DNA of 32,000 nt. Origin: Desulfocapsa sulfexigens DSM 10523 (lineage in GTDB: Bacteria; Desulfobacterota; Desulfobulbia; Desulfobulbales; Desulfocapsaceae). The position numbers and the translations under genes were made by a program. The notes beneath the pieces were generated by a model. The model was not told where the DNA came from, made no database searches, and was given only the letters and a program-made list of their open reading frames with translations. Position 1 is the stretch's first letter. Every line of letters begins with the position of its first letter. This document shows, piece after piece, positions 5,360 to 25,863 of the stretch. The DNA lies in the NCBI RefSeq assembly GCF_000341395.1, contig NC_020304.1, positions 2,220,001 to 2,252,000 on the forward strand, written 5' to 3'.

Positions 5360-5411
5360 ACTTGTTGAAAACAATCATCGTCCATCTTTTTTTCTGCGGT
5401 ATGGTTAAAGT

Positions 5412-8400: not shown

Positions 8401-8798
8401 TTGTAGATCAATCAATTTCTTCTCCATATGATGCAATACAGACGAATATAATCTGGTATATTATACAGTTGCTGGTAGAGTTGAGTATGAATGTGAAGTA
8501 TTTCTCCTGTAATAGTAAAAGAGAGCAAACAGATTTCGACGCGTTACAGAGACTTGGTGTTGAAATAATTTGTGATGCTGAGGATAAAGATGGGTTAAGG
8601 AAGTGGATTCGGGATCATGGATCTTTGCTGGATGTGATTGTATGTCCATCTGATTTCGAGAAAAAGGAAATTCACGGATATGATCTTGACCTGAATGTAA
8701 GGATTGTTCCTTTTTGTTTGTTTGGGGAGCAGAGGGTAAACGGCAAAGCTGATCTTCTTCAAATTCTTAATAATTGTTCGGACGCTGGACCTGCATAA
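5412..8798 (+). CDS. 1128-aa multidomain glycosyltransferase: 38-aa tandem repeats, GT4 domain (about 6434-7500), GT2 domain (about 7587-8250) and a C-terminal truncated GT4-like N-lobe (about 8380-8798)
   Basis: GT4: FVSPLRFGAGVKGKIGQSMAFGLPVVTTSTGAEGM. GT2: VSIIIPTYGQ, IIVIDDASGH, YFLNNDTQV and YYEDVDLAFS. The architecture resembles polymerising GTs of ABC-transporter-dependent O-antigen or capsule pathways. Confidence 0.85.
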   Translation: MSYLKKMFRTLENIVFAYNREGKAVLEIPLFDAAYYRKQFPGKRGSDLNLLRHYLIRGFMQGDNPHPLFNTSFYLKSNPDLAESGTNPLIHYLHRGYRERRSPHILFDISYYLEHNPDVEKAGVDPLIHYLTRGYKERRMPHFLFDVSYYLKNNPDIEKAGIDPLTHYIQYGYKEKRDPHPLFSTSFYLENNPNVEASGKNPLVHYLQYGCKEQRSPHSLFDTPYYIESNPDLKNAGIDPLKHYLSLGYREKRNPHPLFNTFFYCYRYKDKLADGQNPLVHFCVYGLTEKTDPHPLFNTAYYLQFNPEAIASGMNPLVHFLANGYRQGEAFYTYKKRPKREIKTIFIVSCWIPKFNHDSGSLRLYRLIQMLAEDGYEIVLWARSGPGDEQYVEALKELKVTLPYRENGFTNYLDEKGASVDLVMLCRLPVASQYLDIVLTLTDARIVFDTVDLAYLREERMAQTLGQQVDQTIKAKELHVCRCVDEVVVVSPVEKEILKVEGIEENVSIVTNIHDLSSPGRSFKERVGLMFIGGFEHQPNVDGILWFVQKIWPMIQEQISDIHLDIVGSNPPDTILALVSPDINVTGYVLDVKPYFDKARVFVSPLRFGAGVKGKIGQSMAFGLPVVTTSTGAEGMYLEDGVSAMIGDEEELFAQKVIRLYRDEGLWRTLSRNAGGLIEHHFTTEVVKKALLEVIESDRGNETLEQRENEKIDTLLQNLHFTTTDLPLVSIIIPTYGQVYYTLKCLSSIMENLPEAEVEIIVIDDASGHTRIKDLARVPGIQLLVQEENLGFVGSVNNGARQARGDFLYFLNNDTQVTKGWLDSMVALFEVHVDCAIVGSKLVYPDGRLQEAGGIIWQDGAAWNYGHSDDPDSPLYNYVKEVDYVSGASLLIKKQLFDSLGGMNPDYSPAYYEDVDLAFSARAAGGKVYYQPASMVVHYEGISHGTDTSLGIKAYQNSNQATFVKNWQEILAAEHFAHGSNVFHARDRSRHRQTVLLVDQSISSPYDAIQTNIIWYIIQLLVELSMNVKYFSCNSKREQTDFDALQRLGVEIICDAEDKDGLRKWIRDHGSLLDVIVCPSDFEKKEIHGYDLDLNVRIVPFCLFGEQRVNGKADLLQILNNCSDAGPA
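5493..6401 (+). repeat. In-frame tandem repeat with a 114-bp / 38-aa period, 7 full copies plus one degenerate leading copy
   Basis: The unit PHPLF-x-TS-FYL-x-x-NPD-x-x-x-AG-x-NPL-x-HYL-x-x-GY-x-E-x-R recurs at residues 65, 103, 141, 179, 217, 255 and 293 of the 5412 ORF. Copies are diverged at the DNA level. Confidence 0.9.
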
Positions 8799-8828
8799 AT
8801 TCAGTCACTGACCGAGGAGTAAACAACT

Positions 8829-9659
8829 ATGAATCCCCATGCCCAATATCCTACCTCATTGGCAGCAATGTGGCGCTCTGTGTATTCTAATCGAAGCTTG
8901 GTCCGGCAATTGATTGGGCGAGAAATAGCAGGACGATATCGTGGATCGGTTCTGGGTATAGCCTGGTCTTTTTTTCAGCCCTTGCTGATGCTGGCTGTGT
9001 ATACCTTTGTTTTTTCCATGGTATTACAAACGACCTGGAGAGGAGAAGTGGGTGATGGAAAGGTAAATTTTGCAATCATTCTTTTTTCAGGATTGATAGT
9101 GTATGGTCTTTTTGCTGAGTGCATCAATCGAGCGCCAACCCTCATTCTTTCCAATGTTAACTTGGTGAAACGAGTTGTTTTTCCGTTGGAAGTTCTTCCG
9201 GTGGTGATGCTTGGAGTAGCAATTTTCAATCTAATAGTTGGGCTTCTTATTCTCTTTGGAGCAATACTGCTTTTCGGTCTGGATTTTCATGGGAGCTCTC
9301 TCTATCTCCCCCTTGTACTTTCGCCTCTTCTTCTGATGACTTTGGGCCTCTCCTTGCTTCTGGCTGCGGCAGGCGTCTACTTGAGGGACTTGGGACACGT
9401 CGTGGTGGTTGTGACAACCATCCTTCTTTTTCTTTCCCCGGTTTTTTATTCAATATCTGCCGTACCTGAGAAAATACGATTTGTGATCTACTTAAACCCC
9501 CTGACGTTTATCATTGAACAGGTTCGAGCTGTGCTCATCTGGGGCAGGACACCCGACTGGCTTTGGTTGACGGTCTATGGCGGATGCAGCCTGCTTGTCG
9601 CCTGGCTGGGGTTCTCGCTGTTTCAGTGGACACGAAAGGGGTTTTCAGATGTCCTCTAG
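8829..9659 (+). CDS. wzm: ABC-2 type polysaccharide export permease (Wzm/KpsM/TagG family)
   Basis: REIAGRYRGSVLGIAWSFFQPLLMLAVYTFVF, RVVFPLEVLP and a YLNPLT motif. About 6 TM segments. GAGGAG RBS upstream of the ATG. Confidence 0.9.
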   Translation: MNPHAQYPTSLAAMWRSVYSNRSLVRQLIGREIAGRYRGSVLGIAWSFFQPLLMLAVYTFVFSMVLQTTWRGEVGDGKVNFAIILFSGLIVYGLFAECINRAPTLILSNVNLVKRVVFPLEVLPVVMLGVAIFNLIVGLLILFGAILLFGLDFHGSSLYLPLVLSPLLLMTLGLSLLLAAAGVYLRDLGHVVVVVTTILLFLSPVFYSISAVPEKIRFVIYLNPLTFIIEQVRAVLIWGRTPDWLWLTVYGGCSLLVAWLGFSLFQWTRKGFSDVL

Positions 9660-11028
9660 TTCTTCATCTCTGATAGTAGCGCTGGTCAGTAAGTCGTATC
9701 ATATTTATAAAAAGCCTGTAGATCGCCTGAAACAGCTACTACTCTCTCCCCTGTACGAAGTTTGTCTTAAAAGACGAGTAAAGCAGTATTTTACAGAGTT
9801 TCATGCGCTGAGTGATGTCTCTTTTAAGGCTGCTCGAGGTGAAACCATCGGTATCATCGGGGCTAACGGAGCCGGGAAATCTACTTTACTCCAAATCATT
9901 TCAGGAACCCTGTCGCCAACCTCTGGAACTGTTGAGGTGAATGGTCGAGTTGCAGCGCTTCTGGAACTCGGTTCGAGTTTTGATCCAGAGTTTACCGGTA
10001 TTGAAAATGTCTATCTTTATGGAGCCATACTGGGGCTGGATAGAAGAGAAATGACAAAGCGTCTGGATAAAATATGCAAATACGCAGATATTGGTGAGTA
10101 TTTTCACCAGCCGGTGAAAATGTATTCCAGCGGTATGGTTATGCGTTTAGCCTTTGCTGTTATTGTCCATGTTGATGCAGATATTCTTATTATTGATGAG
10201 GCTCTGACGGTTGGCGATGCATTCTTTGTCCAGAAGTGCATGCGGTTTTTGCGGGATTTTAGAAAAAACGGAACCGTGCTCTTTGTCAGTCACGATGCGG
10301 CTGCGGTGGTGAGTCTCTGCTCTCATGTCATATGGTTACAGGATGGAAGAATAAAAATGCAGGGCAGTCCAAAACTTGTATCTGAGGCATACCTGGAAAT
10401 GCAGGTGATGAAGTCCCAAAATATTTCCGAAGAGCAAATGAACCGTCAACCATCTCTTGGAGACAGAACTTCGGAAAGTCAAAAACAGCAAGAGCAGGCA
10501 AGGGACATGCGTCTGGACTTTATCAATAGAAGCAATTTAAGAAATGATATAGAATTGTTTCAATTTCAGCCGGATTCTCTTTCTTTTGGTCAACGAATGG
10601 CCAGTATTGTGAATGTTAGCATGACAGATGAAGCAGGCTGTGTGCTACGCTGGGTCGTGGGAGGGGAAAAAGTGAAGCTTTGCATTGGATGTGAGGCGCA
10701 TGAAATACTTAAGAATCCAATTGTCGGTTTTTATGTGAAGGATCGTTTAGGACAGTATCTCTTTGGGGATAATACGTTTTTGACCTATGAAGACAAGGCC
10801 TTGGAAATAGCAGCTGGAGAGTCTTTTTACGCCCGCTTTAGCTTTCGTATGCCTCTGCTGCCAGTCGGAGAGTACAGCATTTCACCTGCAATTGCCGTGG
10901 GGACACAGGATGAACACCTGACTCAGCATTGGCTCCATGATGCACTTGTGTTCAAGTCTCATGCCAGTTCAGTGGTGAACAGCCTGGTTGGTATTCCCAT
11001 GACCTCAATAGAAATCATTGTGCAGTGA
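9649..11028 (+). CDS. wzt: Polysaccharide export ABC ATPase with a C-terminal glycan-binding domain (Wzt with Wzt_C-like domain)
   Basis: Walker A GANGAGKST, signature YSSGMVMRLAFA and Walker B ILIIDEAL. The C-terminal IVGFYVKDRLGQYLFGDNT...PLLPVGEYSISPAIA is typical of Wzt carbohydrate-binding modules. I chose the ATG at 9649, which overlaps the wzm stop by 11 nt, over the track start at 9577. Confidence 0.9.
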   Translation: MSSSSSSLIVALVSKSYHIYKKPVDRLKQLLLSPLYEVCLKRRVKQYFTEFHALSDVSFKAARGETIGIIGANGAGKSTLLQIISGTLSPTSGTVEVNGRVAALLELGSSFDPEFTGIENVYLYGAILGLDRREMTKRLDKICKYADIGEYFHQPVKMYSSGMVMRLAFAVIVHVDADILIIDEALTVGDAFFVQKCMRFLRDFRKNGTVLFVSHDAAAVVSLCSHVIWLQDGRIKMQGSPKLVSEAYLEMQVMKSQNISEEQMNRQPSLGDRTSESQKQQEQARDMRLDFINRSNLRNDIELFQFQPDSLSFGQRMASIVNVSMTDEAGCVLRWVVGGEKVKLCIGCEAHEILKNPIVGFYVKDRLGQYLFGDNTFLTYEDKALEIAAGESFYARFSFRMPLLPVGEYSISPAIAVGTQDEHLTQHWLHDALVFKSHASSVVNSLVGIPMTSIEIIVQ

Positions 11029-12853
11029 TATTTCTTTCCCATATCTCATTACCATCTATATTGACCAGTGGATGATAATTTTCTGAAACATAGTTAAACA
11101 GAAGTGGCAGCCGTTCTTCATTGGTTATTTCGTCTATGTTGTTAGCCCAGTGTCGGTTTCTATAGAGAATAAACCGTATGTTCTGCCGACCTATACTTTC
11201 TATGAAAATTTTCTGGTTTTTTTGTGACAAGGCAAACCACACCAGAGGAAATCGGGTTGGACAGGCCTGGTCAATAAAATAGTACCATGACGCTTCATTG
11301 GTCAGTGTTATGAATTTTTCATCGCCTGTAAGATTTGTTGTGAGAAAGGAGATGGTGCTCTTATATTCGGGAGGGATGAATTCACTGTCTTTCGTATAAA
11401 TAGGAAAGTTATCGGTGATACTTTTGATGGAAGAGATGTTGATCAAGGTACTTATGGAGTAAAGTCCTGCTGTCAATATAATTAATAGTGTGATGCGCTT
11501 ATACCATAGTGCATTGATATGCCGGTCAATATAGTAGTGTATTGCTATATAGAGAAAGGCAAGGATTGGAAAAAGTGAGCTGTATGCAAGGTGTTCGTCA
11601 TCCGATCGGCCAAGAGCATTTCTAAAGCAGAAAACAGCGACAAGAAAAAGGACAATTGCGTTGAAATATTTCCTCCAAAAGACAAGAAAGTGTAGGACGT
11701 ACTGTTTTTTTGTCACAAGAGTGCAGAGAAGGCGGGTGGCCAGCCAGTAACAGATGCTGCTGAGTAAGAGGAGTATGGTCAAATAACGGGGAGTAAATAC
11801 CGGAAAAAGAAGCCCGTCGGCAAACTCTTTTGTCTTTGGAATATGAACAAAAACAAATTGCACAAAATCGCTGACAGCACCCTGGAGTAATATGGTTAGC
11901 GAGAGCATTCCGACCAGCACTCCAAGAAATGAATAGCGGACAAAAAGACTTCTCCAGGGAGTTTTTCTAAAGAAACCCAAAAAGAGGACGGGGCAAAGCA
12001 GGATGTAGAGTGCAGTTATATAAAAGGCTCTATCAATTGTAATACCAAAGCTTACAATAGGCATGTAGGCAAGTAAAAAACTCAGGATGGATATGGTGAG
12101 GTAGGAGTATCTTTTTGGCGGTAAGCCCGGGACAGCAGTGAGAAGTATCAAGTAGGAAAAGCTGATAAGGTCTCTTGGCAGGACTATAAATGTTTCTTTT
12201 GGAATGACCAGGAACATGATAAAAAACGTCAGAAGTGCCCATGTCCCATTGTTGTTGAAGAGGCGGAGAATGAGTAAGCCTAAACATACAAAAGAGAGCA
12301 CTTTGATAAGAGAGGTCAGTGCCCTGGTAGCACCTATGGATTTCCCGAAAAGTTCCATGGCAATGATAGAGCGAAGGGGATCATGAAACACACCATGGGA
12401 AAAGAGCACATCTCTATAGGGAACCTTGCCCTCTTGTAGAGACATGGCGGCTCCCAGAGTCTCTCCTTCGTGGAAGGTGTCAAAGGTTCCACTTGCGTGG
12501 TAAGTTGGAGTGGCCAGGGAAAGCAGGAGGCTCGTAATGACTATAAACCAGGGGAGGTGTTTTGTTTGCTGTCGTTTGGTCAGGCTACTTCTTGTCCGGA
12601 AGGTATTTTCTTTTCTGATCAGGAATGAGCTGATGAATACTAGCACTGGTGGGAAGGCCATAAAGAGGGCAAAACGCAAGATGTCATTGTTAGGATTCAA
12701 GCCTGCCAGACTGAGAGGGCCAATGATATTGTCGGGGTTGTGGAAGGGGAGAAGAATTTTATTCCATAGATAGAGTCCAAATCCTGTACTCAAAACAAAG
12801 AGAGTGAAGAAGTAGAGAACTCTAAAACAACAGTTGTTTTTATTTGGCATCAT
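11015..12853 (-). CDS. 612-aa polytopic membrane protein with a ~150-aa C-terminal soluble domain. Possibly a GT-C-type glycosyltransferase or polymerase; function unknown.
   Basis: More than 12 hydrophobic segments. An acidic motif FDTFHEGETLG sits in an early loop. I recognise no family signature. Confidence 0.55.
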   Translation of the reverse strand: MMPNKNNCCFRVLYFFTLFVLSTGFGLYLWNKILLPFHNPDNIIGPLSLAGLNPNNDILRFALFMAFPPVLVFISSFLIRKENTFRTRSSLTKRQQTKHLPWFIVITSLLLSLATPTYHASGTFDTFHEGETLGAAMSLQEGKVPYRDVLFSHGVFHDPLRSIIAMELFGKSIGATRALTSLIKVLSFVCLGLLILRLFNNNGTWALLTFFIMFLVIPKETFIVLPRDLISFSYLILLTAVPGLPPKRYSYLTISILSFLLAYMPIVSFGITIDRAFYITALYILLCPVLFLGFFRKTPWRSLFVRYSFLGVLVGMLSLTILLQGAVSDFVQFVFVHIPKTKEFADGLLFPVFTPRYLTILLLLSSICYWLATRLLCTLVTKKQYVLHFLVFWRKYFNAIVLFLVAVFCFRNALGRSDDEHLAYSSLFPILAFLYIAIHYYIDRHINALWYKRITLLIILTAGLYSISTLINISSIKSITDNFPIYTKDSEFIPPEYKSTISFLTTNLTGDEKFITLTNEASWYYFIDQACPTRFPLVWFALSQKNQKIFIESIGRQNIRFILYRNRHWANNIDEITNEERLPLLFNYVSENYHPLVNIDGNEIWERNITAQ

Positions 12854-12925
12854 ATCGTAGGGCTATGGTTCTTCCTGTGAAGGTGGCTTTGACTAATAAT
12901 AAACGATTTTCCTGTAGATACCACC

Positions 12926-14053
12926 ATGAAACGTATTCTTTTTATTTCATCTAATATCCATACTCCATGGGGAGGAAGTGAACTTCTCTGGTACAAGACC
13001 GCAGTTTTTCTTGCATCACAGGAACCAGATGTTGAGGTTGTTGTGGTTGCAAGGAAATGGCCTCATATTCCACCCCATATCCAGGAAATTGCAGACGCCG
13101 GTGGCCGTATTTGTGATTTGCCTCTTCCTCCAACGACATCCATGGAATATTTGAAGGGGAAATTCCGACCATCGATTGAGATGCAAAAGAAAATGCTGTT
13201 ACAAAAGATTTCACCGGATCTTCTCTTGCACTCCATGGGAAAGAGTTTTGAGGGGGGGGACTGGATGCAGAGCGCCCATGAACTGTCCGTTCCCTATGTC
13301 AACCTTGTTCATCTTGCTTCTGATCTACAGTGGCCTGATGATGGTGAAGTGGATCTGTATCGAAAGGGGTATGACCAAGCTCGTGTGAATTTTTTTGTTT
13401 CGGAAGGAAACAGAGGGATTGTTTGCAAGCAGCTAGGGATGAATATTGTAAATTCTGCCATCGTCAGAAATCCGATTTCCGTAGCAAGAGAGATCCTCTC
13501 CTATCCAGAAACGAAACAGGGATACAATCTGGCGTTACCGGCGACGCTGGTCCCAATCCATAAGGGGCATGATATCTTGTTTGAGGTTCTTGCGCAGTCA
13601 AAATGGAAGCAGCGTCCACTTCATCTGAATCTCTATGGAACTGGGAATTATAGCAAGTCATTACAGTACTATAGTCAGTATCTGGGCTTGAAGAATATCC
13701 ACTTCAGGGGCTATTCAAAAAATATTGCAGAAGTATGGGCGAAAAATCATCTCCTGGTGATGAGTTCGAGGATGGAAGGCTTACCGTTAACACTTATAGA
13801 GGCAATGTCCTGTGGTCGATTGGCTGTTGTGACAGGGGTGGCAGGGAAGGAGTGTGTTCAGGATGGTGAAACTGGCTTTGTTGCAAAGGCTGCTCATCCC
13901 GAGTTTATAGATGAAGCTCTGGAGAGGGCCTGGCAGAAGAGGGCGCAGTGGCAGGAAATGGGAAGCCTTGCTGCCGAGCGAGTGCGAGAGCTTATACCCT
14001 TTGATCCCGTCGAGGCATTTGCTCATACCTTGTTGCAACTTGTGCAGGACTGA
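12926..14053 (+). CDS. Glycosyltransferase family 4 (GT-B, retaining type)
   Basis: SSRMEGLPLTLIEAMSCGRLAVVTGVAGKECVQDGETGFV (E-x7-E region). Confidence 0.85.
   Translation: MKRILFISSNIHTPWGGSELLWYKTAVFLASQEPDVEVVVVARKWPHIPPHIQEIADAGGRICDLPLPPTTSMEYLKGKFRPSIEMQKKMLLQKISPDLLLHSMGKSFEGGDWMQSAHELSVPYVNLVHLASDLQWPDDGEVDLYRKGYDQARVNFFVSEGNRGIVCKQLGMNIVNSAIVRNPISVAREILSYPETKQGYNLALPATLVPIHKGHDILFEVLAQSKWKQRPLHLNLYGTGNYSKSLQYYSQYLGLKNIHFRGYSKNIAEVWAKNHLLVMSSRMEGLPLTLIEAMSCGRLAVVTGVAGKECVQDGETGFVAKAAHPEFIDEALERAWQKRAQWQEMGSLAAERVRELIPFDPVEAFAHTLLQLVQD
13252..13259 (+). repeat. G8 homopolymer inside the GT4 coding sequence
   Basis: Read directly: gaG GGG GGG Gac encoding E-G-G-D. It is the longest G/C run I found in the window; the others are 6 or shorter. 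Confidence 0.95.
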
Positions 14054-14099
14054 CTTTAGTCCTCCTTTTTCTTATGGTTTATTTGGCAACAGTGGACTG

Positions 14100-15695
14100 T
14101 TATTTTCTCTTATCCTGTTCAGCCAGTAGACAGTGAATATCGTGTCGAATTGTTTTGCTCATCTGTAGATACGAATCACCGCTGATGCAATGAACAATAT
14201 ATTTTTTTAGACGGCTTGGGTTCTGTTTTTGCATGCCTTTTAATTGCTTCCAAAATTGTACCCTGTGGGGCGCTATGACACCATGTAACCATGCATGATG
14301 AAAAAATGTGACAAGCTCACAGAGCTGTCTTTTCAGAGGAGGGCTTGTTGTCTTTGCAGGATTGTCTTCATGAGGGGTACCGTTCTTTGCAGCTATGGCT
14401 TTACGAGTTGGACGTATACCAAGACAGAATTTGTAGGTCCTCTCCAAAAAACGGGAAGGGTTGTAGAGGTATTCCCACATTTCAATAAATTCCTCCATTA
14501 TCTCCTCTAATGGTCTGCTTGGGATAAAGTTGGGTAGATTAAAATATGTTTCACTTGTATTTAATGCGATGAGTTTGTCGAATAAACGATCTTCTTTTTG
14601 CAATCGCTCCTCGAGTCTAGTACCTGGGGGAGCGCTGAGAATGTTGGGCATAATGATCGGGATGCTGGTTTGATCAACAAAATCACAGATCCGTTTCCCC
14701 GCTCCTTTTTTTTCGTTGTCAAATCCAATGATAAAGCTACCAATGATTGAAAGTCCGTTTCGTTTAATATTTTCGATGGATTCCACAAGTGGATTGATGA
14801 CATTTTGATGCTTTTCATTTGCCGTCAGTATATCCTCGTCTGGAGATTCAATTCCGATAAATATATCCCCAAAGTTTGCAGCGGTCAGCAGGTCTATCAT
14901 CTCCATGTCTTGTCCCAGGTTTACAGATGCCTGGGTTGTGAAACCAAAGGGCTGGTGGCGTTTTCTGTTCCATTTGATCAGTTCCTGGCAGATGGCCTTT
15001 GCATTCTTTTTGTTGGCGATAAAATTATCATCTGCAATTGTAATATGACCCCTGGCTCCAAGTTGATACAGGTATTCCAGTTCTGCGATAACTTGATCAG
15101 GACTTTTAAAACGGGGCTGCTTGCCGTATAAACCTGCAATGTCACAGAATTCACAACTGAATGGACACCCTCTGGTTGTCTGTATTAAGAAATGGTAGTA
15201 GTCGTCAAGATTGATGAGGTCATAACGAGGCAGGGGGGTGTTGTTTAAGTCAGGCTTTTCGTTGTTGCGAATGACTTGACCACTTTTTCTGGATTGGATG
15301 GCATCAACCAGGGAAGTGATGTTGTTTTCTGCTTCTCCACAGACCACGATATCACAACCAATTGTAATGAGTTCATCAGCCATGAGTGTCGGGTAGGGGC
15401 CTCCCGCGACGGTGACTTTTGCTCTTTTTTTTGCTTCTTCAATTAGGGGCTGGAAACTTTTTCTCTGCACTATCATGCCTGATATCATGATTATGTCAGC
15501 CCATTGCCACTCTTTTTCAGTTACTTCTCTGACATTTAAATCAACAAACTTGATATCCCATTCTTTTGGTAAAAGTGCGGCAACTGTGATTGGTCCGAGA
15601 GGAGCATATAAGGCCTTTGCTGTAGAAAATCGTATTGCTTGAGGAAAACTCCAGAAAGAAAATGGTAATTCTGGGTATATGAGTAAGATATTCAT
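14100..15695 (-). CDS. B12-binding-domain radical SAM enzyme (class B type) with a long C-terminal extension
   Basis: N-terminal Rossmann-like MNILLIYPE...ADIIMISGM...VTVAGGPYPT. Radical SAM cluster motif TTRGCPFSCEFCDI (CxxxCxxC). The ~150-aa helical C-terminal tail looks like the type often labelled DUF4070; this is from memory and unverified. Confidence 0.9.
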   Translation of the reverse strand: MNILLIYPELPFSFWSFPQAIRFSTAKALYAPLGPITVAALLPKEWDIKFVDLNVREVTEKEWQWADIIMISGMIVQRKSFQPLIEEAKKRAKVTVAGGPYPTLMADELITIGCDIVVCGEAENNITSLVDAIQSRKSGQVIRNNEKPDLNNTPLPRYDLINLDDYYHFLIQTTRGCPFSCEFCDIAGLYGKQPRFKSPDQVIAELEYLYQLGARGHITIADDNFIANKKNAKAICQELIKWNRKRHQPFGFTTQASVNLGQDMEMIDLLTAANFGDIFIGIESPDEDILTANEKHQNVINPLVESIENIKRNGLSIIGSFIIGFDNEKKGAGKRICDFVDQTSIPIIMPNILSAPPGTRLEERLQKEDRLFDKLIALNTSETYFNLPNFIPSRPLEEIMEEFIEMWEYLYNPSRFLERTYKFCLGIRPTRKAIAAKNGTPHEDNPAKTTSPPLKRQLCELVTFFHHAWLHGVIAPHRVQFWKQLKGMQKQNPSRLKKYIVHCISGDSYLQMSKTIRHDIHCLLAEQDKRK

Positions 15696-15916
15696 GGGGA
15701 AACTCCTGATTGAATCACTAGAGATTGGCTTATTAGCTCCCTGGGCAAGTTGAGTCTTTACAGATTACAAACATACTATATACTATATATTATGACATTT
15801 TTTTGGATCAATGAATTTTTCAAAGGTGTAGTAAGCTGATATAAATAATATTCAATACTGTGTGAACATACACCTGACTGTGAAGTAGTTGTTATATGTA
15901 ATGTATCATACATTCT
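15696..15916. promoter_or_regulatory. AT-rich divergent intergenic region between the radical SAM gene (minus) and the GT4 genes (plus)
   Basis: 221 bp between divergent starts. It contains a tandem ACTATAT ACTATAT followed by ATTATGAC (several -10-like hexamers) near 15775-15795. Confidence 0.35.
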
Positions 15917-17164
15917 TTGGAGTTTCTGTTTTTGTCTGATAAAAAGTTGCCAAATACCGCTTATATTCTACTCTGGTTTCCTAAGCCATCTGAAACATTT
16001 GTTTTCAGTGAGGTGGAAAATTTATTAAAACTTGGGTTGCCAGTGTCTGTCTACACTTTGTATGGGAGATTAGAAAAAGACCTGTCTTCTGATATGCAAT
16101 CGTATCAAGGAAAAATCCTCAGGTTGGGTGTATGGTGGGGAATTGCTCTGCCGATATTCATTTTTTATTGGTTTTTGAGATCTCCCGTTAAGACGACCAT
16201 GCTTATTGTTCGGATTGTATTAAGAAGATGGAAAGGAGTAGAGAAAACAGCAGAGAATGTATGGGCATGTTTCTGTGCCTTCTATCTGGCATATCGTTTT
16301 GAAAAAGATCAGATCAAACATATTCATGCTCCCTGGGCCTGTGGCTGTGCGACGGCTGCCTGGCTTGCTTCCCGATTAACGGGTATTCCCTTCAGTTTTG
16401 CCATGCATGCCTGGGATATCTATCCCCCTGACAGCCTGATCCAAGAAAAAACAAGGGATGCTTTGTTTGTTAGGAGTGTGACGCAATATAATATTGAATA
16501 TTTACGAAAACTTACTGCTTGCTCTGAAGATAAGTTTCACCTTATTTACATTGGTGTTCCCATGAGTCAGGTAAAAGCAAGACATGTTTCCATGGAACCG
16601 CCATATCAATTGTTAGCCGTTGGACGTTTGGTTGGTAAAAAAGGCTATGAATTTCTTTTACGTGCCTGCGGAGTATTGAAGGCCAATGCGATAGATTTCC
16701 ACTTGAATATTGTCGGTGATGGTTTGTATCTTAACCAATTGCAACGACTCTGTGCATCGCTCGAACTAGAATCTGTTGTGACGTTTCATGGGTTTCAACC
16801 CTATGAAAAAATGCCAACTTTTTTTCAGGAAGCGGACATTTTCATAATGCCGTGTGTTGTCCATTCTTCCGGGGACCGTGATGGTATCCCAACTGTTTTG
16901 ATGGAGGCTCTTCTTCATTATGTTCCGGTTATCACTACTTCGGTTTCCGGGATCCCTGAACTCATTGAAGACGGTGTCTCAGGTGTGCTTGTGCCGGAAA
17001 AAGATCCCAATGCAATAGTCGACGCCGTAACCCTGCTTATAACAGAAAAACAAAAAGCGTGGGATATGGCGGACAGGGGAAACCGGAAAGTGTTGGAATT
17101 GTTCAATGCAGAGAAAAACCATAAAAAAATACTTGATCTTTACAATTCCTACCTGTTGAACTAA
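15917..17164 (+). CDS. Glycosyltransferase family 4, WcaL-like
   Basis: The N-terminal FPKPSETFVFSEVENLLKLG matches the F-P-x-x-SETF-x-x-x-E signature of WcaL-type GT4 enzymes. C-terminal GDRDGIPTVLMEALLHYVPVITTSVSGIPELIEDGVSGVLV. The start is a TTG, so it is uncertain. Confidence 0.8.
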   Translation: MEFLFLSDKKLPNTAYILLWFPKPSETFVFSEVENLLKLGLPVSVYTLYGRLEKDLSSDMQSYQGKILRLGVWWGIALPIFIFYWFLRSPVKTTMLIVRIVLRRWKGVEKTAENVWACFCAFYLAYRFEKDQIKHIHAPWACGCATAAWLASRLTGIPFSFAMHAWDIYPPDSLIQEKTRDALFVRSVTQYNIEYLRKLTACSEDKFHLIYIGVPMSQVKARHVSMEPPYQLLAVGRLVGKKGYEFLLRACGVLKANAIDFHLNIVGDGLYLNQLQRLCASLELESVVTFHGFQPYEKMPTFFQEADIFIMPCVVHSSGDRDGIPTVLMEALLHYVPVITTSVSGIPELIEDGVSGVLVPEKDPNAIVDAVTLLITEKQKAWDMADRGNRKVLELFNAEKNHKKILDLYNSYLLN

Positions 17165-17193
17165 CAGATTGTTAAGGATGTTTGTCTTTTCAC

Positions 17194-18279
17194 ATGAATG
17201 ATATTTCCCCTCCATATAAACTCGTTATTGTTCTTCAGGATCTGGAATTCGGTGGTACCCAGCGGTATGCTATAAACCTTTTGCAATATATAGACAGAAG
17301 TTTGTTTGACCCGGAACTCTGGGTGCTTCGGGGTGGTATGGATATGGCCCCACTTGCCAAACAGACAGGAGTTCAGATACGATGGTTCTCAAAAGGCAGC
17401 AGAGTTACCCCATTAGCTCTGTATCATTTTTTTCGATGTCTTGCTCGTAACAGACCTACTATTCTCTATCCTTTGACAGTTGTTCCTAATATCTGGGCAA
17501 GAATTTTTGGGACCCTTTTGAGGGTGCCGGTACTTATTTCGAGTTATCGGAATTTATATGCAAACCAGTATGAACGTCTGCTTTGGCCTTTGTCCACTCA
17601 TATTATCTGCAACGCAGAGGCAATACGAGAAAAACTGGTAAAAAAGCACAGAGTGAAAAGGAGTAGGATTTCAGTCGTTTCCAATGGCGTGGATACAGAG
17701 TTCTTTGTTCCCGACTCTGCAAAACAATCAATTCCTTTGACAATTCTGTACGCCGGACGGCTGGTTTATCAGAAAGATCCTCTGACTTTGCTTAAGGCCT
17801 TTGTGCGTATTAAAGAGGCAAGACCCGAGGTAAGGTTGCTGGTAGTGGGTAATGGAGATTTGCGTTGTGAACTTCTGCAATTTATCAAACATCATTCCCT
17901 TGAAGAACATGTTTCTTTGATCGGGGGGACAGTGGATATCAAAAAGTATATGCAGAAAGCCAGGATCTTTCTTCTTTCCTCTCTTTATGAAGGATCGCCA
18001 AATATACTTATTGAAGCTATGGCTTGTGGTTTGCCGGTAGTTGCCACTCGAACAAGTGGAATCCCAGAGCTCATTGAGCACGGGAGGAATGGTTATCTGG
18101 TTTTACCTGGTGATTCAAAAACTATGGCTAAACAGGCAATTCATCTCCTTTCTGATAGTCATTTATGGGAAACTATGTCAACACAGGCACGAATCAAGGT
18201 GCTTACAAACCATAAACTGAAAGAATGTGTTCGACTGACGGAAAAGATCTTGCTGGCTCATCTCCCTGAACAGAAATGA
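17194..18279 (+). CDS. Glycosyltransferase family 4
   Basis: LEFGGTQRY N-lobe and SSLYEGSPNILIEAMACGLPVVATRTSGIPELIEHGRNGYLV. I prefer the ATG at 17194 over the TTG at 17182. Confidence 0.85.
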   Translation: MNDISPPYKLVIVLQDLEFGGTQRYAINLLQYIDRSLFDPELWVLRGGMDMAPLAKQTGVQIRWFSKGSRVTPLALYHFFRCLARNRPTILYPLTVVPNIWARIFGTLLRVPVLISSYRNLYANQYERLLWPLSTHIICNAEAIREKLVKKHRVKRSRISVVSNGVDTEFFVPDSAKQSIPLTILYAGRLVYQKDPLTLLKAFVRIKEARPEVRLLVVGNGDLRCELLQFIKHHSLEEHVSLIGGTVDIKKYMQKARIFLLSSLYEGSPNILIEAMACGLPVVATRTSGIPELIEHGRNGYLVLPGDSKTMAKQAIHLLSDSHLWETMSTQARIKVLTNHKLKECVRLTEKILLAHLPEQK

Positions 18280-18306: not shown

Positions 18307-19770
18307 TTATGGCTCATTTGTTTGGGCGTCAGACCTTTGTTCACGCCAGACCAATAGAAAGTAAACGGATAATGCCAATGTACCTGAGACATAATAATTA
18401 ACTGGTAGGAAAAGTATAAAAAGAACTATCGTTCCCAGCCAGTAAAGAGATGTGTTTTTATAGTCTGCCACATCAAAAAAGCGGATTCTTTTCTGTAAAG
18501 TGGCGATAAGGATGATTGACAATATGATCCTGCTGCCCAGAAGAGAGAGGACACCTCCCAGCGGACCTGTATCGGCTATAAGGAGAGGGCCAAGTACGAT
18601 ACTGCATAAAACTGGTATCGTAAGGAATATAAGCAATTGTTTTTCTAGCCTCATTGCTAACAGGCTATAAATAATAAAATTATTTATAAAAGAGAAAAAT
18701 GCGGCAGCACCAAAAAATGGAACGAGAGCTTCAGAAACAGAGTAGTTTTCCCCATATATGATGAAGGCAATCTTACCTCCAAAAACAGCGAGGAGAACGG
18801 CGAGACCACTCCCTAACAGTACGATTTTTTTGAAGAAAGACCGGATTACTTCTCGAAAATGCTCTTTGTTTTTGTCGGAAAATGCGCTGACGAGTTGCGG
18901 AAAGAGCACCGCACCGATGACAAGATGAGCTATGGCTCCACAGATTGATCCCGTTATGTCGGAGGCAACTTTATAAATCGCAACATCGTTGAAGGTGTGA
19001 TATTGCCGAATCCAAAAAATCTGGATTTCATTATAGAATGTTCCAAGGAAACTCACGCCGGAGATAAGTGCCAATGAAATCAGTTCGTTTTTCTTGAATG
19101 GGAATTCAGTATTTTTTTTCAGGGAAAAGTAACATAGCCTTCGGGCACCAAATATTGCTGTGCTTAATTTTAGACCACCACTTAGTAGGAAGAGTAGGGA
19201 AAAGAAAAGAATATCCAAATGGAGAAAAAGGCATACTGCTCCATAGGAAAATGCAATAATATTGGGGACTGTCCGACAGATGCCTTCATTAATGTTTTTT
19301 CCTTCTGCTCGGAAAAGATTGAAAAATGTATCGGCCATCCCTTCAAAACATTGGCTAAGTAAGAGGATAGAGATAATGGTAATCTGCTGAAGAGGCCACT
19401 GCTTGATAAAGAGTGCGAAAGTGAGAAAAATAAATATGGATCCTCCAGAAATGAGGACCTTCATTAGGGCCATTTGTCTCAGTAAGGGGCCCGTGCCACT
19501 CTTGGATGCGGATAGTTCCCGAAGGGTGTATTGATCCAGGCCCATGCTTTGCAGTGAACGGAGTAGCGTAACAATACTTAACCCAAGAACGATTAGGCCG
19601 TAACCGGACTGGTCGATACGGGCAAGCCAGATAAAGAGAAGGGAAAGTAAGGCATCCTGTACAGACTTACTACCGATAAGTGCCAAGGAACGAAAGATGA
19701 TGGTGCGGAAGGATAAAACCTGCTGAGGCGATTTATTGTCAGCAGGTGACATGCTATCTCTTTGTCTCAT
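18307..19770 (-). CDS. MOP-superfamily polysaccharide/oligosaccharide flippase (Wzx-like)
   Basis: About 12-14 TM segments. The N-terminal pattern ...ALIGSKSVQDALLSLLFIWLAR...GYGLIVLGLSIVTLL is typical of polysaccharide biosynthesis (Wzx/RfbX) proteins. The start is ambiguous: TTG 19785, ATG 19770 or ATG 19752. Confidence 0.75.
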   Translation of the reverse strand: MRQRDSMSPADNKSPQQVLSFRTIIFRSLALIGSKSVQDALLSLLFIWLARIDQSGYGLIVLGLSIVTLLRSLQSMGLDQYTLRELSASKSGTGPLLRQMALMKVLISGGSIFIFLTFALFIKQWPLQQITIISILLLSQCFEGMADTFFNLFRAEGKNINEGICRTVPNIIAFSYGAVCLFLHLDILFFSLLFLLSGGLKLSTAIFGARRLCYFSLKKNTEFPFKKNELISLALISGVSFLGTFYNEIQIFWIRQYHTFNDVAIYKVASDITGSICGAIAHLVIGAVLFPQLVSAFSDKNKEHFREVIRSFFKKIVLLGSGLAVLLAVFGGKIAFIIYGENYSVSEALVPFFGAAAFFSFINNFIIYSLLAMRLEKQLLIFLTIPVLCSIVLGPLLIADTGPLGGVLSLLGSRIILSIILIATLQKRIRFFDVADYKNTSLYWLGTIVLFILFLPVNYYVSGTLALSVYFLLVWREQRSDAQTNEP

Positions 19771-19880
19771 TGCAGATGATTCCAATTGCTAACGATTTTT
19801 GTCAGTAGCTAAATCGTACACGAAATTTTTTGACGAATGGGTCTTTGAGTAGCAAAGGAACACATCACTCTGATATAGGG

Positions 19881-20816
19881 TTATCTCGTCAGCTGTTTAT
19901 ATTCTATTCGACCTTTAAATCCTGGACGTAATTCGAATTTATTGTTTTTTATAGTCATCTCTATCTGGTAGTAAGACGGAAGGTCTGGATCAGGGATGGC
20001 TGGGGCCCAGCTAATGGACGTAATTGTTGCAGGAAATTGTCTTTTTGGGAGAGAATCTGGAAAAAAAGTTACTTTGTCGCCAATATTGAGGTGAATAACA
20101 TCTCTTTCATAGACGAGGGAGTGTATCAGCATGGTATCCATGGTTCCAATTTGGGCGATGATTGTTCCCTCGGGGAGTAAACTGTTTTCTCTGAGAAGTG
20201 GATGGAGTGAAAGGACCATTCCAGAGATAGGAGATTTTAATTTTACAATCTCAGGGATTTGGCCAGATATGATGGTGTCGTCTCCAAGCACTTTTCTCAC
20301 ACTCTTGAGTGCCTTGTCTGCGAAATTATCGGCGTAGGTGAATCGTTTCGTGAGAATTGATACGTAAGCACGGGTCAAGCGCAGCTCTGTTTGTAATGCC
20401 TCCAATGTATATTGGGGGGAGAGTTTCTCGGCTGTTAAACGTTTGAGTTCTTTTTCCGTTCGTTCAAGTCGGATGATGTTTTGTTTTTCCAGCTCGAGAT
20501 GGCGTCTTATGTCATCAAGTTCGTTGAAGAGAAGTTCTCTTCCAAGTTGGATCGCCCGGCTTTCTTCCAAAGTATATTGAGCAATTGTTTCACCTTCTTC
20601 AACCGACTGCCCGGGGATGATCCTGATATCTGTGAAGGTCCCGGTAAAAGGCATGGGGACTGCTCTGCTCAGTGAACAGGAAACTTTTCCCTCAAAAACG
20701 AGGATGGAATTATTCGGGATTTCTTTTGCCTGCTTTTCGTCAACTTCGTTGGCAAAAGAAGAGCTAAAGAACAAACAAGTGACAAGTAAGCAAGTGAAAC
20801 GGATTAGATTATTCAT
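19881..20816 (-). CDS. HlyD/MacA/DevB-type periplasmic adaptor (membrane fusion protein)
   Basis: N-terminal signal-like segment, a lipoyl-like GQSVEEGETIAQY, a coiled-coil stretch (ELEKQNIIRLERTEKELKRL) and beta-barrel-like GDKVTFFPDSLP. It overlaps the upstream gene by 8 nt. Confidence 0.8.
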   Translation of the reverse strand: MNNLIRFTCLLVTCLFFSSSFANEVDEKQAKEIPNNSILVFEGKVSCSLSRAVPMPFTGTFTDIRIIPGQSVEEGETIAQYTLEESRAIQLGRELLFNELDDIRRHLELEKQNIIRLERTEKELKRLTAEKLSPQYTLEALQTELRLTRAYVSILTKRFTYADNFADKALKSVRKVLGDDTIISGQIPEIVKLKSPISGMVLSLHPLLRENSLLPEGTIIAQIGTMDTMLIHSLVYERDVIHLNIGDKVTFFPDSLPKRQFPATITSISWAPAIPDPDLPSYYQIEMTIKNNKFELRPGFKGRIEYKQLTR

Positions 20817-22134
20817 AGGGAATATCTGCTAAAGAAATGTTGAAAGTATCTTTTAGAAGCTGTCCAGAGAGGTGCCGAAGTTTAAGGGTTGCCTTATTTA
20901 AAGAGAATTGCTTTTGGATCGTATCTAATGATTTCCTGTGTAATGCAATTTGGTGATCGATAAGTTCAGGAAGTTCAATTGTCCCTCTTGCATAGTCAAT
21001 TTCCCTTTTTTTCATCTGTATATTATTGAGTTTCTCAATTGATTGAGACAAAGCATATGCGGATTTAGCAGATGAATATTGCTGTGTGGCCTTCAGCCAT
21101 TCCAGGGAATCGTTGTTTTCGATTTCTTTCTTTTCAAAATCCATTTGTCGAAGAACCATTTTCTGCCTGGTAATATCCCGGGATCGTTTATTCCCATCCC
21201 AGAGGGTAAGGCTCATGCCGGCATATAAAAAGTATTCCTGGTCATCATTGACACTTACATTCAAAACATCGGGGCTACGAAAACCTATTGAGAAATCAGG
21301 TAGAAATTTGGAATAGGCAAGTGTTATATTTTTTTGTTGTAGAATCCCTTTTATTTGCATGATTTGTTGTTCAATTGAATCCTTTGGTTGGGGGGAACTT
21401 TGTGGGGTGGAGAGGGGGGAATTGCCAAGAATTTGTTTGAGTACCTGCGGGGCGTCAAGATCAAATACTGTAGGATCCGGTAAATTCATTGAAATACACA
21501 GGCCATTGAGTAGTGCATCACGTTTTATCGCATTACCTTCGTATTCCGCAGCAATAAAGGCATTTCTTTGTTCCTCAAATTCTATTTCAAGATCTGTAGT
21601 CAGGCCACTCTCGTACCGTTGTTTAGCATAATGCAGCCTTTTTTGAGAAAGGTCCACTATCTGTTTGTAATGGCTTTCATTTTGGTCGGTCACAAAAAGC
21701 TGTAAAAACGTGTCCGCTAATTTATACAAGGCTTGAGCAGTCGCCTGTACATGTTTGAGCATGACGATATGGGTAATTAGTTTTCTTGCCTGCAGAGTGT
21801 AATAGGGTTCCCAAGGCCTGTAATTTGCGGCGTTAAATGAAATTGTGGCTTCATCTTCTGAAAAATAATAATAACTGGAGAGCGATAGAGTGGGAACATA
21901 GGACCAGCGACTGTCATCCTCGTCAAGATGTCTGATATCTATTTCTATTTTACTTCTTTGTAGTTGTGGTATCCTTTTCACGCCGGTTACTGCACATGTC
22001 TGGAAATCAGTTATTTTTTCAGGGATGGTAGTATCTGGTCCATCCGTTTCTGCTGCTTGAACAGTTGGTGTGTGAAGGAGCAGGTAGGGATAAATTATGA
22101 GTAACAGTATGTATGATAGATGTTGTCGGGTCAT
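20809..22134 (-). CDS. TolC-family outer membrane efflux channel
   Basis: Signal peptide ...LLLHTPTVQA. Two repeated helix-rich halves with Y/L-rich OEP-like segments. The size (441 aa) and operon position with the MFP and ABC genes also fit. Confidence 0.75.
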   Translation of the reverse strand: MTRQHLSYILLLIIYPYLLLHTPTVQAAETDGPDTTIPEKITDFQTCAVTGVKRIPQLQRSKIEIDIRHLDEDDSRWSYVPTLSLSSYYYFSEDEATISFNAANYRPWEPYYTLQARKLITHIVMLKHVQATAQALYKLADTFLQLFVTDQNESHYKQIVDLSQKRLHYAKQRYESGLTTDLEIEFEEQRNAFIAAEYEGNAIKRDALLNGLCISMNLPDPTVFDLDAPQVLKQILGNSPLSTPQSSPQPKDSIEQQIMQIKGILQQKNITLAYSKFLPDFSIGFRSPDVLNVSVNDDQEYFLYAGMSLTLWDGNKRSRDITRQKMVLRQMDFEKKEIENNDSLEWLKATQQYSSAKSAYALSQSIEKLNNIQMKKREIDYARGTIELPELIDHQIALHRKSLDTIQKQFSLNKATLKLRHLSGQLLKDTFNISLADIPYE

Positions 22135-22186
22135 CTGACTTTCCCAAAAAAAAGTAAATATTTAAACATGGTGAGCATGCTTCCAG

Positions 22187-22885
22187 TTACTTTTCTGAAA
22201 GCAGTTCTCCATTTTCTATGTGTAAGACCTGGTCGCACTTTTCAGCAACGTTTTGATCGTGAGTAACTAAAATCATGGCTGTATCGGTAGATGATGCAAT
22301 GGATCTGAAACATTCCATAATTTGCTGTGAATTATCAGAATCGAGTTGGCCAGTTGGTTCATCGGCGAGAATAACTGCAGGTTTGTTGACTATTGCTCTG
22401 GCAATGGCAACTCGTTGTCTTTCTCCACCGGAAAGTTTGTTGGATGAATGATGCATGCGATGAGTCAGGTTGACCTGCTCAAGAACCTGATGAATTCTTT
22501 CTGGTCGGAGTGATGGCTTGCTTTTAGCGTAAATAAGAGGGTATTCAATGTTTTCATATACAGTTGAGTGTTCAAACATATCGGCGCCCTGGAGCACAAA
22601 CCCAATATGCTCTCTGCGGAATTGTGCCTGATGCCCCCGACTAAGCTCAAGGATGTTTGTATCGTTAACGAGATATTTTCCGGTGGTGGGTGAAAGGAAC
22701 AGTCCGAGAATAAAAAGAAGTGTTGACTTCCCTGAACCGGATGGCCCCATTATGGCTACCATCTCATTTCTTAACACAGTCATGTCTATTTTGCGAAGGA
22801 CAGAGACGTCCTTTCCTTGAGTCTGGTAAGATTTGGTTATTCCCTGAAGGTCGATAAGATTACTTGTTTTTTGTTGTTTACTCAT
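22187..22885 (-). CDS. ABC transporter ATPase, MacB/LolD/DevA type
   Basis: Walker [10 protein letters not shown], signature [14 protein letters not shown], Walker [12 protein letters not shown] and an H-loop VTHD. Confidence 0.9.
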
Positions 22886-24071
22886 ATCTAAGAGCAGTAA
22901 CCACTTCCATTCTACTGGCTTTTATGGCTGGCGCAAGACCGGCTACTATGCCAAGAATAAGAGAAAATGAAAAGCCAATGCCAGTACTCAGCCAGAAGAG
23001 ATTTTTTGGAGGAGAATTATGGAGGATTGAAGCTGTGAATGTTACCCCTGTCCATCCTAACATAAATCCGATAAAAGTTGCACCAATGCTCAGCATAAGA
23101 GACTCTGCAAGAAACTGAAAGAGAATATCGTGGTCTTCAGCACCGATTGCCTTTTTCAAGCCGATTTCCCGGGTTCTTGAGCGGACGGCCATCATCATGA
23201 TATTCCATATCCCTATTCCACCAAGCACAAAAGTGGCAATCAGGGCAAGCTGGACAAAAATTTTGACTCCAAAAGAAATGGCTTTAATTCTGGCCAAAAG
23301 TTCTTCAGGGAGAAAAATTTCTATTTCATCGTTCGGTTGATATTTTTTTACTACGAGAGGTATTTTATTTATCGTATCCTCTATATCATCCCAGGAGTAG
23401 CAACGGATGTAGAGTTTATTTACTGGACTTATTGAATTGATCCTGTCTTGGGCTGTAGTTATCGGCAAAAAGATAGTGCGGGCTTTATCAGGCATGCTCA
23501 TGGCGTCAAGAACGCCAATAACTTTAAACGGGGTGTTGTTAATAGTGATAAATTGGTCTATGGGATCCAGGTGGTTGAAAATTTCATGGGCAGTTCTCTG
23601 CCCCAAAATGCATACAGGCCTACGTTGCTGCAGATCTTTTTCAGAAAATAAGATACCAGCTTGAGTGGATGAACCATGTACTTTCCAGAATGATTCATCA
23701 ACACCGAGCATTTGAAAATAACCAATGGTATCCAGGTGTGAGATTTTGACAAAGTCATTCCTGGTGACAATACTGCTGACTTGATCGACCCCTGGAATGG
23801 CTTTTATCCCGTCGATGCTGTTCTGCTTGAATTCTCTTTTGTCTGTGCGAGGATCGAGAGTGGGGATATGTTTGAAGAGAATTCTGATACGGGTGGCGTT
23901 CCCTATAATTTCAAGGTCGTGGCTGATGTTTTCCTCTATTGACCTTCCCATGGTAATCATAATAATAAATCCAGCAGTTCCAAGGATGATTGTAACGATC
24001 ACGCCAATATTTTTGCGGTATTGTCGCAACACTTGCCGACTACTTATTCGGATGAGGTCGGTGGTTCTCAT
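22878..24071 (-). CDS. ABC transporter permease, MacB/FtsX/DevC type with a periplasmic domain
   Basis: One N-terminal TM, a ~230-aa extracytoplasmic domain, then a 3-TM FtsX-like C-terminus (REIGLKKAIGAEDHDILFQFLAESL...[17 protein letters not shown]). It overlaps the ATPase start by 8 nt. Confidence 0.85.
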   Translation of the reverse strand: MRTTDLIRISSRQVLRQYRKNIGVIVTIILGTAGFIIMITMGRSIEENISHDLEIIGNATRIRILFKHIPTLDPRTDKREFKQNSIDGIKAIPGVDQVSSIVTRNDFVKISHLDTIGYFQMLGVDESFWKVHGSSTQAGILFSEKDLQQRRPVCILGQRTAHEIFNHLDPIDQFITINNTPFKVIGVLDAMSMPDKARTIFLPITTAQDRINSISPVNKLYIRCYSWDDIEDTINKIPLVVKKYQPNDEIEIFLPEELLARIKAISFGVKIFVQLALIATFVLGGIGIWNIMMMAVRSRTREIGLKKAIGAEDHDILFQFLAESLMLSIGATFIGFMLGWTGVTFTASILHNSPPKNLFWLSTGIGFSFSLILGIVAGLAPAIKASRMEVVTALRYE

Positions 24072-25850: not shown

Positions 25851-25863
25851 TAGCATTCTTGCC

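Follow-up and report, generated by a model that had tools for sequence, protein, structure and literature searches.

We analyzed a 32,000-nucleotide stretch of the genome of Desulfocapsa sulfexigens DSM 10523 (contig NC_020304.1, positions 2,220,001 to 2,252,000 of the forward strand; hereafter the window, with coordinates counted from its first letter). A gene for a class B (cobalamin-type) radical S-adenosylmethionine (SAM) enzyme lies at 14100–15695 on its minus strand, within a Wzm/Wzt glycosyltransferase locus. Judged from sequence, the fixed slot of this gene in the locus hints at an undescribed radical modification of a surface glycan, most likely C-methylation. We propose tentatively, at somewhat less than an even chance, that the enzyme is a class B radical SAM C-methyltransferase, probably cobalamin-dependent, which tailors a lipid-linked glycan, possibly as a cap read by the C-terminal domain of Wzt (Wzt_C); in this proposal, the use of cobalamin, the transfer of a methyl group, the glycan as substrate, and capping are all inferred. 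Class B radical SAM enzymes occur in antibiotic, cofactor, peptide and lipid pathways.

The open reading frame (ORF) of the radical SAM gene was intact, starting with ATG and encoding 531 amino acids (aa), and an AGGAG box was located at 15703–15707 on the minus strand, 7 nt upstream of the start. The gene and its parts were as follows.

14100–15695, minus strand: the class B (cobalamin-type) radical SAM gene, whose 531-aa product has the HpnP-like architecture of B12-binding, Radical_SAM, and DUF4070 domains
15315–15623, minus strand: N-terminal Rossmann-type B12-binding domain, residues 25–127 (Pfam PF02310)
14703–15185, minus strand: radical SAM core, residues 171–331 (Pfam PF04055)
14136–14621, minus strand: DUF4070 domain, residues 359–520 (Pfam PF13282)
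15144–15167, minus strand: CPFSCEFC, a CxxxCxxC [4Fe-4S] cluster motif, residues 177–184 (direct translation)

All three Pfam domains exceeded their curated cut-offs: 48.7 bits against a cut-off of 32.1 for the B12-binding domain (E 8e-13), 62.3 bits for the radical SAM core (E 8.1e-17), and 121 bits for DUF4070 (E 5e-35). The cysteines of the cluster motif, C177, C181, and C184, were invariant in 35 homologues with identity down to 49% (alignment A1). An AlphaFold2 model built on those homologues reached a predicted local distance difference test score (pLDDT) of 90.7, and strands alternated with helices in its N-terminal domain. Foldseek matched the model to the Protein Data Bank (PDB) structures of MgmA, OxsB, CysS, TsrM, and TokK as well as to AprD4 and MiaB (12–17% identity), with E values of 1e-15 to 1e-18 for solved enzymes of the cobalamin type and of 1e-13 to 5e-18 when AprD4 is counted with them. 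By its domains, its cluster motif, and its fold, the protein is thus shown to be a class B-type enzyme, as the preliminary description had read from the B12-binding-like N-domain and the CPFSCEFC cluster. No membrane-spanning segment was predicted in the protein, which is accordingly annotated here as a putatively soluble, cytoplasmic enzyme. Use of cobalamin is probable by analogy with HpnP, which has the same architecture of B12-binding, Radical_SAM, and DUF4070 domains and which, as reported, has been confirmed by experiment to depend on B12 (PMC10697835).

The closest characterised relative was HpnP. Our reference for it was P0240, a "Hopanoid C-2 methylase" by NCBI/UniRef annotation, which was reached via a Bradyrhizobium plasmid homologue (80% identical); the HpnP references in the comparison were alphaproteobacterial only. 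The radical SAM protein aligned with P0240 colinearly over the full length at 35% identity (E 3e-108), far better than with any other characterised enzyme, and this was the only full-length alignment with a characterised protein that included all three domains. The alphaproteobacterial HpnP proteins were 78–88% identical to one another. In a bootstrapped neighbour-joining tree, they formed a clade with a support of 100, the group of the window's protein (P0001–P0018) another with 100, and a cyanobacterial HpnP-like group a third with 90. By its sequence, the radical SAM protein is therefore placed outside the HpnP clade, among uncharacterised "HpnP-like" proteins. Such proteins, including a second cyanobacterial paralogue, have been described before (Hoshino et al. 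2023, PMC10697835), and because of this family, hpnP is harder to use as a marker gene when 2-methylhopane biomarkers are interpreted (PMC10697835). The identity of the protein was 41–44% with a cyanobacterial clade and about 50% with proteins encoded in metagenome-assembled genomes (MAGs) of the Desulfobacterota type. The family is very large, with 1027 clusters at 50% identity (E <= 1e-30) and more than 7900 matches at 90% clustering, many of its members coming from Desulfobacterota-type MAGs and cyanobacteria.

No curated class B model of NCBIfam came near its cut-off for the radical SAM protein: TIGR04013 scored 96.7 bits (cut-off 251), PhpK of the P-methylase type 85.4 (600), BchE 78.6 (481), MgmA 75.4 (360), HpnJ (TIGR03471) 72.1 (577.6, with the match covering residues 169–415 only), the ladderane-type lipid radical SAM model 69.2 (360), HpnR 51.5 (650), KedN5 39.4 (700), and AprD4 27.3 (500). 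The protein is thus no closer to HpnJ than to other class B enzymes. ArsL, ApyD, and BzaD were likewise rejected as identities, their NCBIfam scores being far under the cut-offs. Among the reference families named in the preliminary description, HpnP was thus the closest at 35% identity, albeit with the protein outside the HpnP clade, and HpnJ, HpnR, and BchE fell far below their cut-offs. GenK and Fom3, for which the libraries searched had no model or reference sequence, were absent from the PDB and NCBIfam matches.

We favour C-methylation as the chemistry, since HpnP, the characterised enzyme nearest to the protein, is a C-methylase; the preliminary description had named it as one possibility, and the full-length alignment at 35% identity points the same way. 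The target would be an unactivated carbon of a lipid-linked glycan, or of its sugar or acyl substituent, and the modification would take place on the cytoplasmic side of the membrane, ahead of export. By analogy with class B methylases, the reduced [4Fe-4S] cluster held by C177, C181, and C184 would cleave SAM to a 5'-deoxyadenosyl radical, and this radical would abstract a hydrogen atom from the substrate carbon. The resulting substrate radical would gain a methyl group from methylcobalamin in the N-terminal domain, and a second SAM would re-methylate the cob(I)alamin.

A glycan-tied enzyme could instead perform non-methylating radical chemistry on a sugar, such as AprD4-type dehydration or deoxygenation, epimerisation, or an OxsB/HpnJ-type rearrangement or ring contraction. 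We regard this as unlikely. The top TM-scores among PDB structures were indeed to AprD4 (TMq 0.63–0.64), a radical SAM 1,2-diol dehydratase acting on an aminoglycoside sugar, which to our knowledge shares the fold but neither uses cobalamin nor methylates. OxsB and HpnJ combine the same fold with non-methylating chemistry (review PMC12931638), which counts in favour of such a function, and the conserved position in the locus would fit it equally well. However, the sequence similarity to AprD4 is marginal (27.3 bits against 500; E 1.9e-6), the scores for HpnJ (72 against 578) and BchE (79 against 481) are equally poor, and the only characterised match that is full-length and covers three domains is a methylase.

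The radical SAM gene stands among the following features of the locus.

4307–5359, plus strand: Glyco_trans_1_3 (MJ1255/VC2487-type) glycosyltransferase (domain match)
5412–8798, plus strand: 1128-aa multidomain glycosyltransferase (GT4 + GT2), a candidate polymerising enzyme
8829–9659, plus strand: Wzm, ABC-2 permease (Pfam ABC2_membrane, 91 bits)
9577–11028, plus strand: Wzt, ABC ATPase with C-terminal carbohydrate-binding Wzt_C (Pfam ABC_tran and Wzt_C, 119.6 bits)
11015–12853, minus strand: orphan polytopic membrane protein of the GT-C glycosyltransferase fold, 612 aa, 11 hydrophobic segments
12926–14053, plus strand: GT4a glycosyltransferase (Pfam Glycos_transf_1 and Glyco_trans_1_4), convergent with the radical SAM gene across a 46-bp gap
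15696–15916, no strand assigned: intergenic region of 221 bp that separates the divergent radical SAM and GT4b genes, holding the AGGAG box at 15703–15707 (minus strand)
15917–17164, plus strand: GT4b glycosyltransferase (Pfam Glycos_transf_1), divergent from the radical SAM gene
17182–18279, plus strand: GT4c glycosyltransferase (Pfam), its 3' part within the second variable block described below
18307–19785, minus strand: polytopic membrane protein, possibly a MOP-type flippase, 492 aa, 8 hydrophobic segments
19881–24071, minus strand: tripartite exporter operon of MacB/FtsX permease, ABC ATPase, outer-membrane factor, and HlyD adaptor (Pfam)

A Wzm permease together with a Wzt bearing Wzt_C marks an ABC-transporter-dependent glycan pathway, and both were present, in agreement with the preliminary description of a Wzm/Wzt-type locus. 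The longest ORF for Wzt (483 aa) overlaps wzm by 83 nt (9577–9659), and the gene call in the contig of a near-identical strain (L001) is 459 aa long; the true start of Wzt is therefore probably downstream of 9577. The radical SAM gene was described at the outset as a minus-strand gene between GT4 genes, and both of its neighbours did prove to be plus-strand Glycos_transf_1 genes. The 221-bp intergenic region contains promoter-like hexamers on both strands, which are consensus matches only. The nearest other minus-strand gene (11015–12853) lies past the whole plus-strand GT4a gene. It is reasonable to read from this arrangement that the radical SAM gene is transcribed alone.

The position of the gene is conserved in its closer relatives. 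The order Glyco_trans_1_3 glycosyltransferase, GT4 + GT2 glycosyltransferase, Wzm, Wzt, 612-aa protein, GT4a, radical SAM enzyme, and GT4b was kept in five further loci, where the radical SAM proteins were 80% (L001/L002), 70% (L003), 76% (L004), 65% (L090/L091), and 66% (L092/L093) identical to that of the window. The position of GT4a was kept in L001, L003, L004, L090, and L092, and that of GT4b in all in-locus relatives. Where the retrieved DNA extends far enough beyond GT4b, it contains the tripartite exporter and in most cases GT4c and the flippase-like protein as well. The exporter was conserved in L001, L003, L005, L090, and L092. The in-locus radical SAM proteins form a subclade with a bootstrap of 86, and the relatives that carry them are labelled "Pseudomonadota bacterium"; a metagenome scan for close relatives returned one partial locus only.

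Outside this subclade, the neighbourhood changes. P0012 (66% identity) lies beside the exporter and other glycosyltransferases in a different arrangement, at a contig end; its paralogue in the same assembly, P0017, adjoins cobT and unrelated genes, and P0018 (59% identity) is placed among redox genes. We also surveyed 80 more distant loci from species-representative genomes, clustering the neighbours and scanning 118 immediate neighbours against Pfam, and found only tandem radical SAM paralogues recurring next to the homologues. From this survey and Pfam scan, we rejected the idea of a glycan role for the family as a whole. Because beyond about 60% identity there is no association with glycosyltransferases, the glycan link is a property of one small lineage and not of the family. 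An HpnP-like enzyme has been recruited into a glycan locus in that lineage, where the association is real. The position next to glycosyltransferase genes that the preliminary description had pointed to thus holds in relatives of at least 65% identity within the clade and is lost beyond about 60%.

Several arrangements of homologues were recorded in passing. MAG GCA_043798185.1 carries one copy beside the exporter and glycosyltransferase genes and another beside cobT. In L008/L009 (6613–9822), two homologues stand in tandem beside a radical SAM/SPASM gene, a GT2 gene, and a Wzy_C gene. Homologues are often paralogous (L008/L009, L094, L005), and for four of the listed proteins the length of the longest contig is the same, 99,242 bp.

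The identity of the DNA along the window was compared with the contig of the near-identical strain (L001), and a mosaic was found.

4103–13850: 91–99.6% identity
about 13850–15850, spanning the radical SAM gene plus the spacer upstream of it: 75–85% identity
15853–17350: 92–99% identity
17350 to about 19900, the 3' part of GT4c followed by the 492-aa membrane protein: 55–76% identity, about 63% over the membrane-protein gene
19900–24755: 98% identity

Between the two alleles of the radical SAM gene, the rate of synonymous substitution (dS) was 1.06, compared with 0.02–0.23 for the neighbours, and the ratio of nonsynonymous to synonymous rates (dN/dS) was 0.11; the gene is under purifying selection. 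A third contig (L098) repeated the pattern, with the radical SAM gene 81% identical and the neighbours 93–98% identical. High dS together with low dN/dS between similar flanks indicates that a functional allele was replaced by recombination, and the pattern looks like the allelic cassette replacement typical of surface-antigen loci. In the second variable block, GT4c was 61% identical to its L001 counterpart between flanks of 96–100%; L001 also has an extra 316-aa ORF in this block.

The same data bear on another explanation, in which the substrate is a membrane lipid (a hopanoid or other terpenoid, the polyprenyl carrier, or an acyl chain of lipid A or a glycolipid) and the place in the locus reflects a shared envelope function or a chance insertion. 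This is improbable in our view. The closest characterised relative methylates a hopanoid; the annotated neighbours of plasmid homologues are an acyl-CoA desaturase, a fatty acyl-AMP ligase, and a lipid A lauroyl acyltransferase; the radical SAM gene is probably monocistronic and was replaced as a cassette; and the locus contains an exporter of the MacB/HlyD/outer-membrane-factor type. DevBCA-type exporters, which are akin to it, move glycolipids in cyanobacteria. On the other hand, the protein is only 35% identical to HpnP and outside its clade, both clades having bootstraps of 100, and neither squalene-hopene cyclase (shc) nor any other hpn gene was detected within the 32-kb window. The three lipid-related neighbours are anecdotes and not a pattern, the neighbourhoods being otherwise random, whereas the slot between two GT4 genes was kept across six loci. 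One of these neighbourhoods, on plasmid pCB82_1 of Bradyrhizobium sp. CB82 (L097, 8983–11487), has an HpnP-clade gene overlapping the annotated lipid A lauroyl acyltransferase tail to tail. In Bradyrhizobium, hopanoids are covalently linked to lipid A.

As to what methylation of a glycan might serve, the scan of locus ORFs of at least 100 aa turned up neither a methyltransferase nor a kinase domain, and the candidates for capping in the locus were five glycosyltransferases and the radical SAM enzyme. With Wzt_C present and no conventional methyltransferase or kinase domain in the scanned ORFs, the methyl group may therefore be a cap at the non-reducing end that licenses export. In Escherichia coli O8/O9a, the C-terminal domain of Wzt reads a terminal methyl or phospho-methyl cap, and this is the basis, a weak one, of the cap idea. 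In its specific form, in which a C-methyl or other radical-derived mark at the non-reducing end of an undecaprenyl-linked polysaccharide would be the chain-terminating, export-licensing cap read by Wzt, we find the idea rather doubtful.

Several points weigh against glycan C-methylation and capping by this enzyme. The characterised relative, HpnP, acts on a lipid and not on a sugar, and the top TM-score match is AprD4. Sister paralogues at 59–64% identity adjoin redox or B12-salvage genes instead of glycosyltransferase genes, and no glycosyltransferase family was among the 25 most frequent Pfam families of the 118 neighbours of the 80 distant homologues. The in-locus examples all come from rather closely related organisms, and some of the synteny is therefore due to common descent. 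The own strand, the promoter region, and the separate cassette divergence of the gene are equally compatible with a loosely coupled passenger gene. Finally, the cap could be added by one of the five glycosyltransferases instead.

The preliminary description had also drawn a parallel with hopanoid biosynthesis, in which HpnJ acts with the GT2 HpnI and the YdjC-like deacetylase HpnK, and had pointed to a GT2 and YdjC pair in the window. The pair was present by Pfam.

24837–26730, plus strand: GT2 (ArnC/PgfS-type) and YdjC deacetylase, the GT2 gene occupying 24837–25850

The GT2 protein scored 240.8 bits with PgfS and 175.3 bits with ArnC, both below the cut-off, and has two C-terminal hydrophobic segments; HpnI was not among its listed NCBIfam matches. 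The best NCBIfam match of the YdjC protein was HpnK, at 204.9 bits against a cut-off of 232.6, with 246 bits for the YdjC domain. The pair opens a row of plus-strand genes at 24837–31556 that encode GT2, the YdjC deacetylase, a 593-aa polytopic protein, an Acyl_transf_3 protein, and a 574-aa polytopic protein; the two polytopic proteins had no family match. In the NaxD route, an ArnC-like GT2 makes undecaprenyl-phosphate N-acetylhexosamine, which a YdjC-family deacetylase converts to undecaprenyl-phosphate hexosamine before an ArnT-like transferase acts (PMC11279074). From its predicted gene products, the row looks like a NaxD-type polyprenyl-phosphate hexosamine module, possibly for the decoration of lipid A or of a glycan.

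It is highly improbable that the radical SAM protein is an HpnJ-like enzyme which, with the GT2 and YdjC proteins, turns a glucosamine-lipid headgroup into a cyclitol ether. The presence of the pair 9 kb away in the same window and the best match of YdjC to HpnK speak for this model, but the HpnJ score was 72.1 against 577.6, HpnK was below its cut-off, and GT2 matched PgfS and ArnC. The oppositely oriented exporter operon intervenes, and the pair was not found in L003, L090, or L092, the three relatives with retrieved DNA past macB. The GT2, YdjC, and polytopic proteins resemble those of the NaxD-type route (PMC11279074). This route would explain the pair more simply and without a radical SAM enzyme; therefore, the HpnI/HpnJ/HpnK parallel is not supported.

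Between wzt and GT4a, the 612-aa polytopic protein had no Pfam or NCBIfam match, and a search of 5.8 billion sequence clusters yielded only 32 homologues. Its AlphaFold2 model (pLDDT 90.3) had as top Foldseek matches ArnT, the archaeal oligosaccharyltransferase AglB, and DPY19, and by this model it represents an undescribed GT-C family. The gene was kept beside wzt in the in-locus relatives. A conserved FDTFHEGE(T)LG motif is located near residues 125–134, with D125, H128, E129, G130, E131, and G134 invariant. We rejected this protein as an obligate partner of the radical SAM enzyme, having found homologues in Bacteroidales, in Hydrogenedentota, and in a 52%-identical relative without a radical SAM gene nearby.

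Elsewhere in the locus, the gene of the 1128-aa glycosyltransferase contains a 114-nt tandem repeat at 5671–5911 on the plus strand (2.1 copies, 76% matches), which encodes a duplicated segment of about 38 aa in an N-terminal region without domain assignment. The L003 homologue of the 492-aa membrane protein (18307–19785) gave a weak Polysacc_synt_3 match. Two distinct export systems, of the Wzm/Wzt and MacB/HlyD types, are adjacent in the locus. Upstream of the first glycosyltransferase, positions 1–4300 of the window contain no ORF longer than 231 aa; no Pfam domain was found in the short ORFs, and no tRNA, no Rfam match even at E 0.1, and no plasmid DNA match were found in this region. The G+C content was 0.48–0.50 in the first 3 kb and about 0.34–0.48, mostly near 0.42, in the locus. 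Positions 1–4300 may be what is left of a gene, or an extended stretch of non-coding DNA.

A search of the literature for B12 radical SAM enzymes in O-antigen, Wzt, or exopolysaccharide loci returned nothing relevant, the Xanthomonas matches being unrelated radical SAM genes. The enzyme superfamily and the type of locus are each known; their combination was not found in the literature searched, and the clade is without a characterised member. If the enzyme modifies a glycan, radical C–H functionalisation would join the chemistry of bacterial surface polymers, and the very large HpnP-like family would gain its first functional lead. If the mark were a cap, a class B radical SAM enzyme would for the first time have been shown to take part in assembling a cell-surface glycan, O-antigen chain terminators would include a new type, and the cassette-like allelic replacement of the gene would be a route to antigenic variation. 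Should the substrate be a lipid, the case would still matter for annotation, because genomic context alone would have misled. The proposed glycan C-methylation concerns a single gene in a conserved locus and predicts a readout of +14 Da.

Compared with known systems, the radical SAM protein shares with HpnP the three-domain architecture, a similar length, and 35% full-length identity, but it lies outside the HpnP clade and its gene is in a Wzm/Wzt glycosyltransferase locus instead of a hopanoid context. It belongs to the HpnP-like proteins, whose genes lie within a glycan locus in the window's subclade only and otherwise have no conserved neighbourhood. With HpnJ, the enzyme of the hopanoid cyclitol ether, it shares the superfamily and a similar core, whereas the score is far under the cut-off and the GT2 and YdjC proteins of the window are not of the HpnI/HpnK type. 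MgmA/QCMT (9CCB), TokK, CysS, TsrM, OxsB, and AprD4 have the same Rossmann-type domain and partial TIM barrel, MgmA being the solved structure closest in sequence (E 9.5e-14). These enzymes differ in their substrates, which are peptides, carbapenems, polyketide-type intermediates, or nucleosides, and in their C-terminal domains, DUF4070 occurring in none of them as far as our search shows. WbdD forms O-methyl caps as a conventional SAM methyltransferase/kinase. The radical SAM protein has no sequence or fold relationship to WbdD, but, as in systems with WbdD-type terminators, a Wzt_C domain is present, and apart from the glycosyltransferases this protein is the only capping candidate of the locus.

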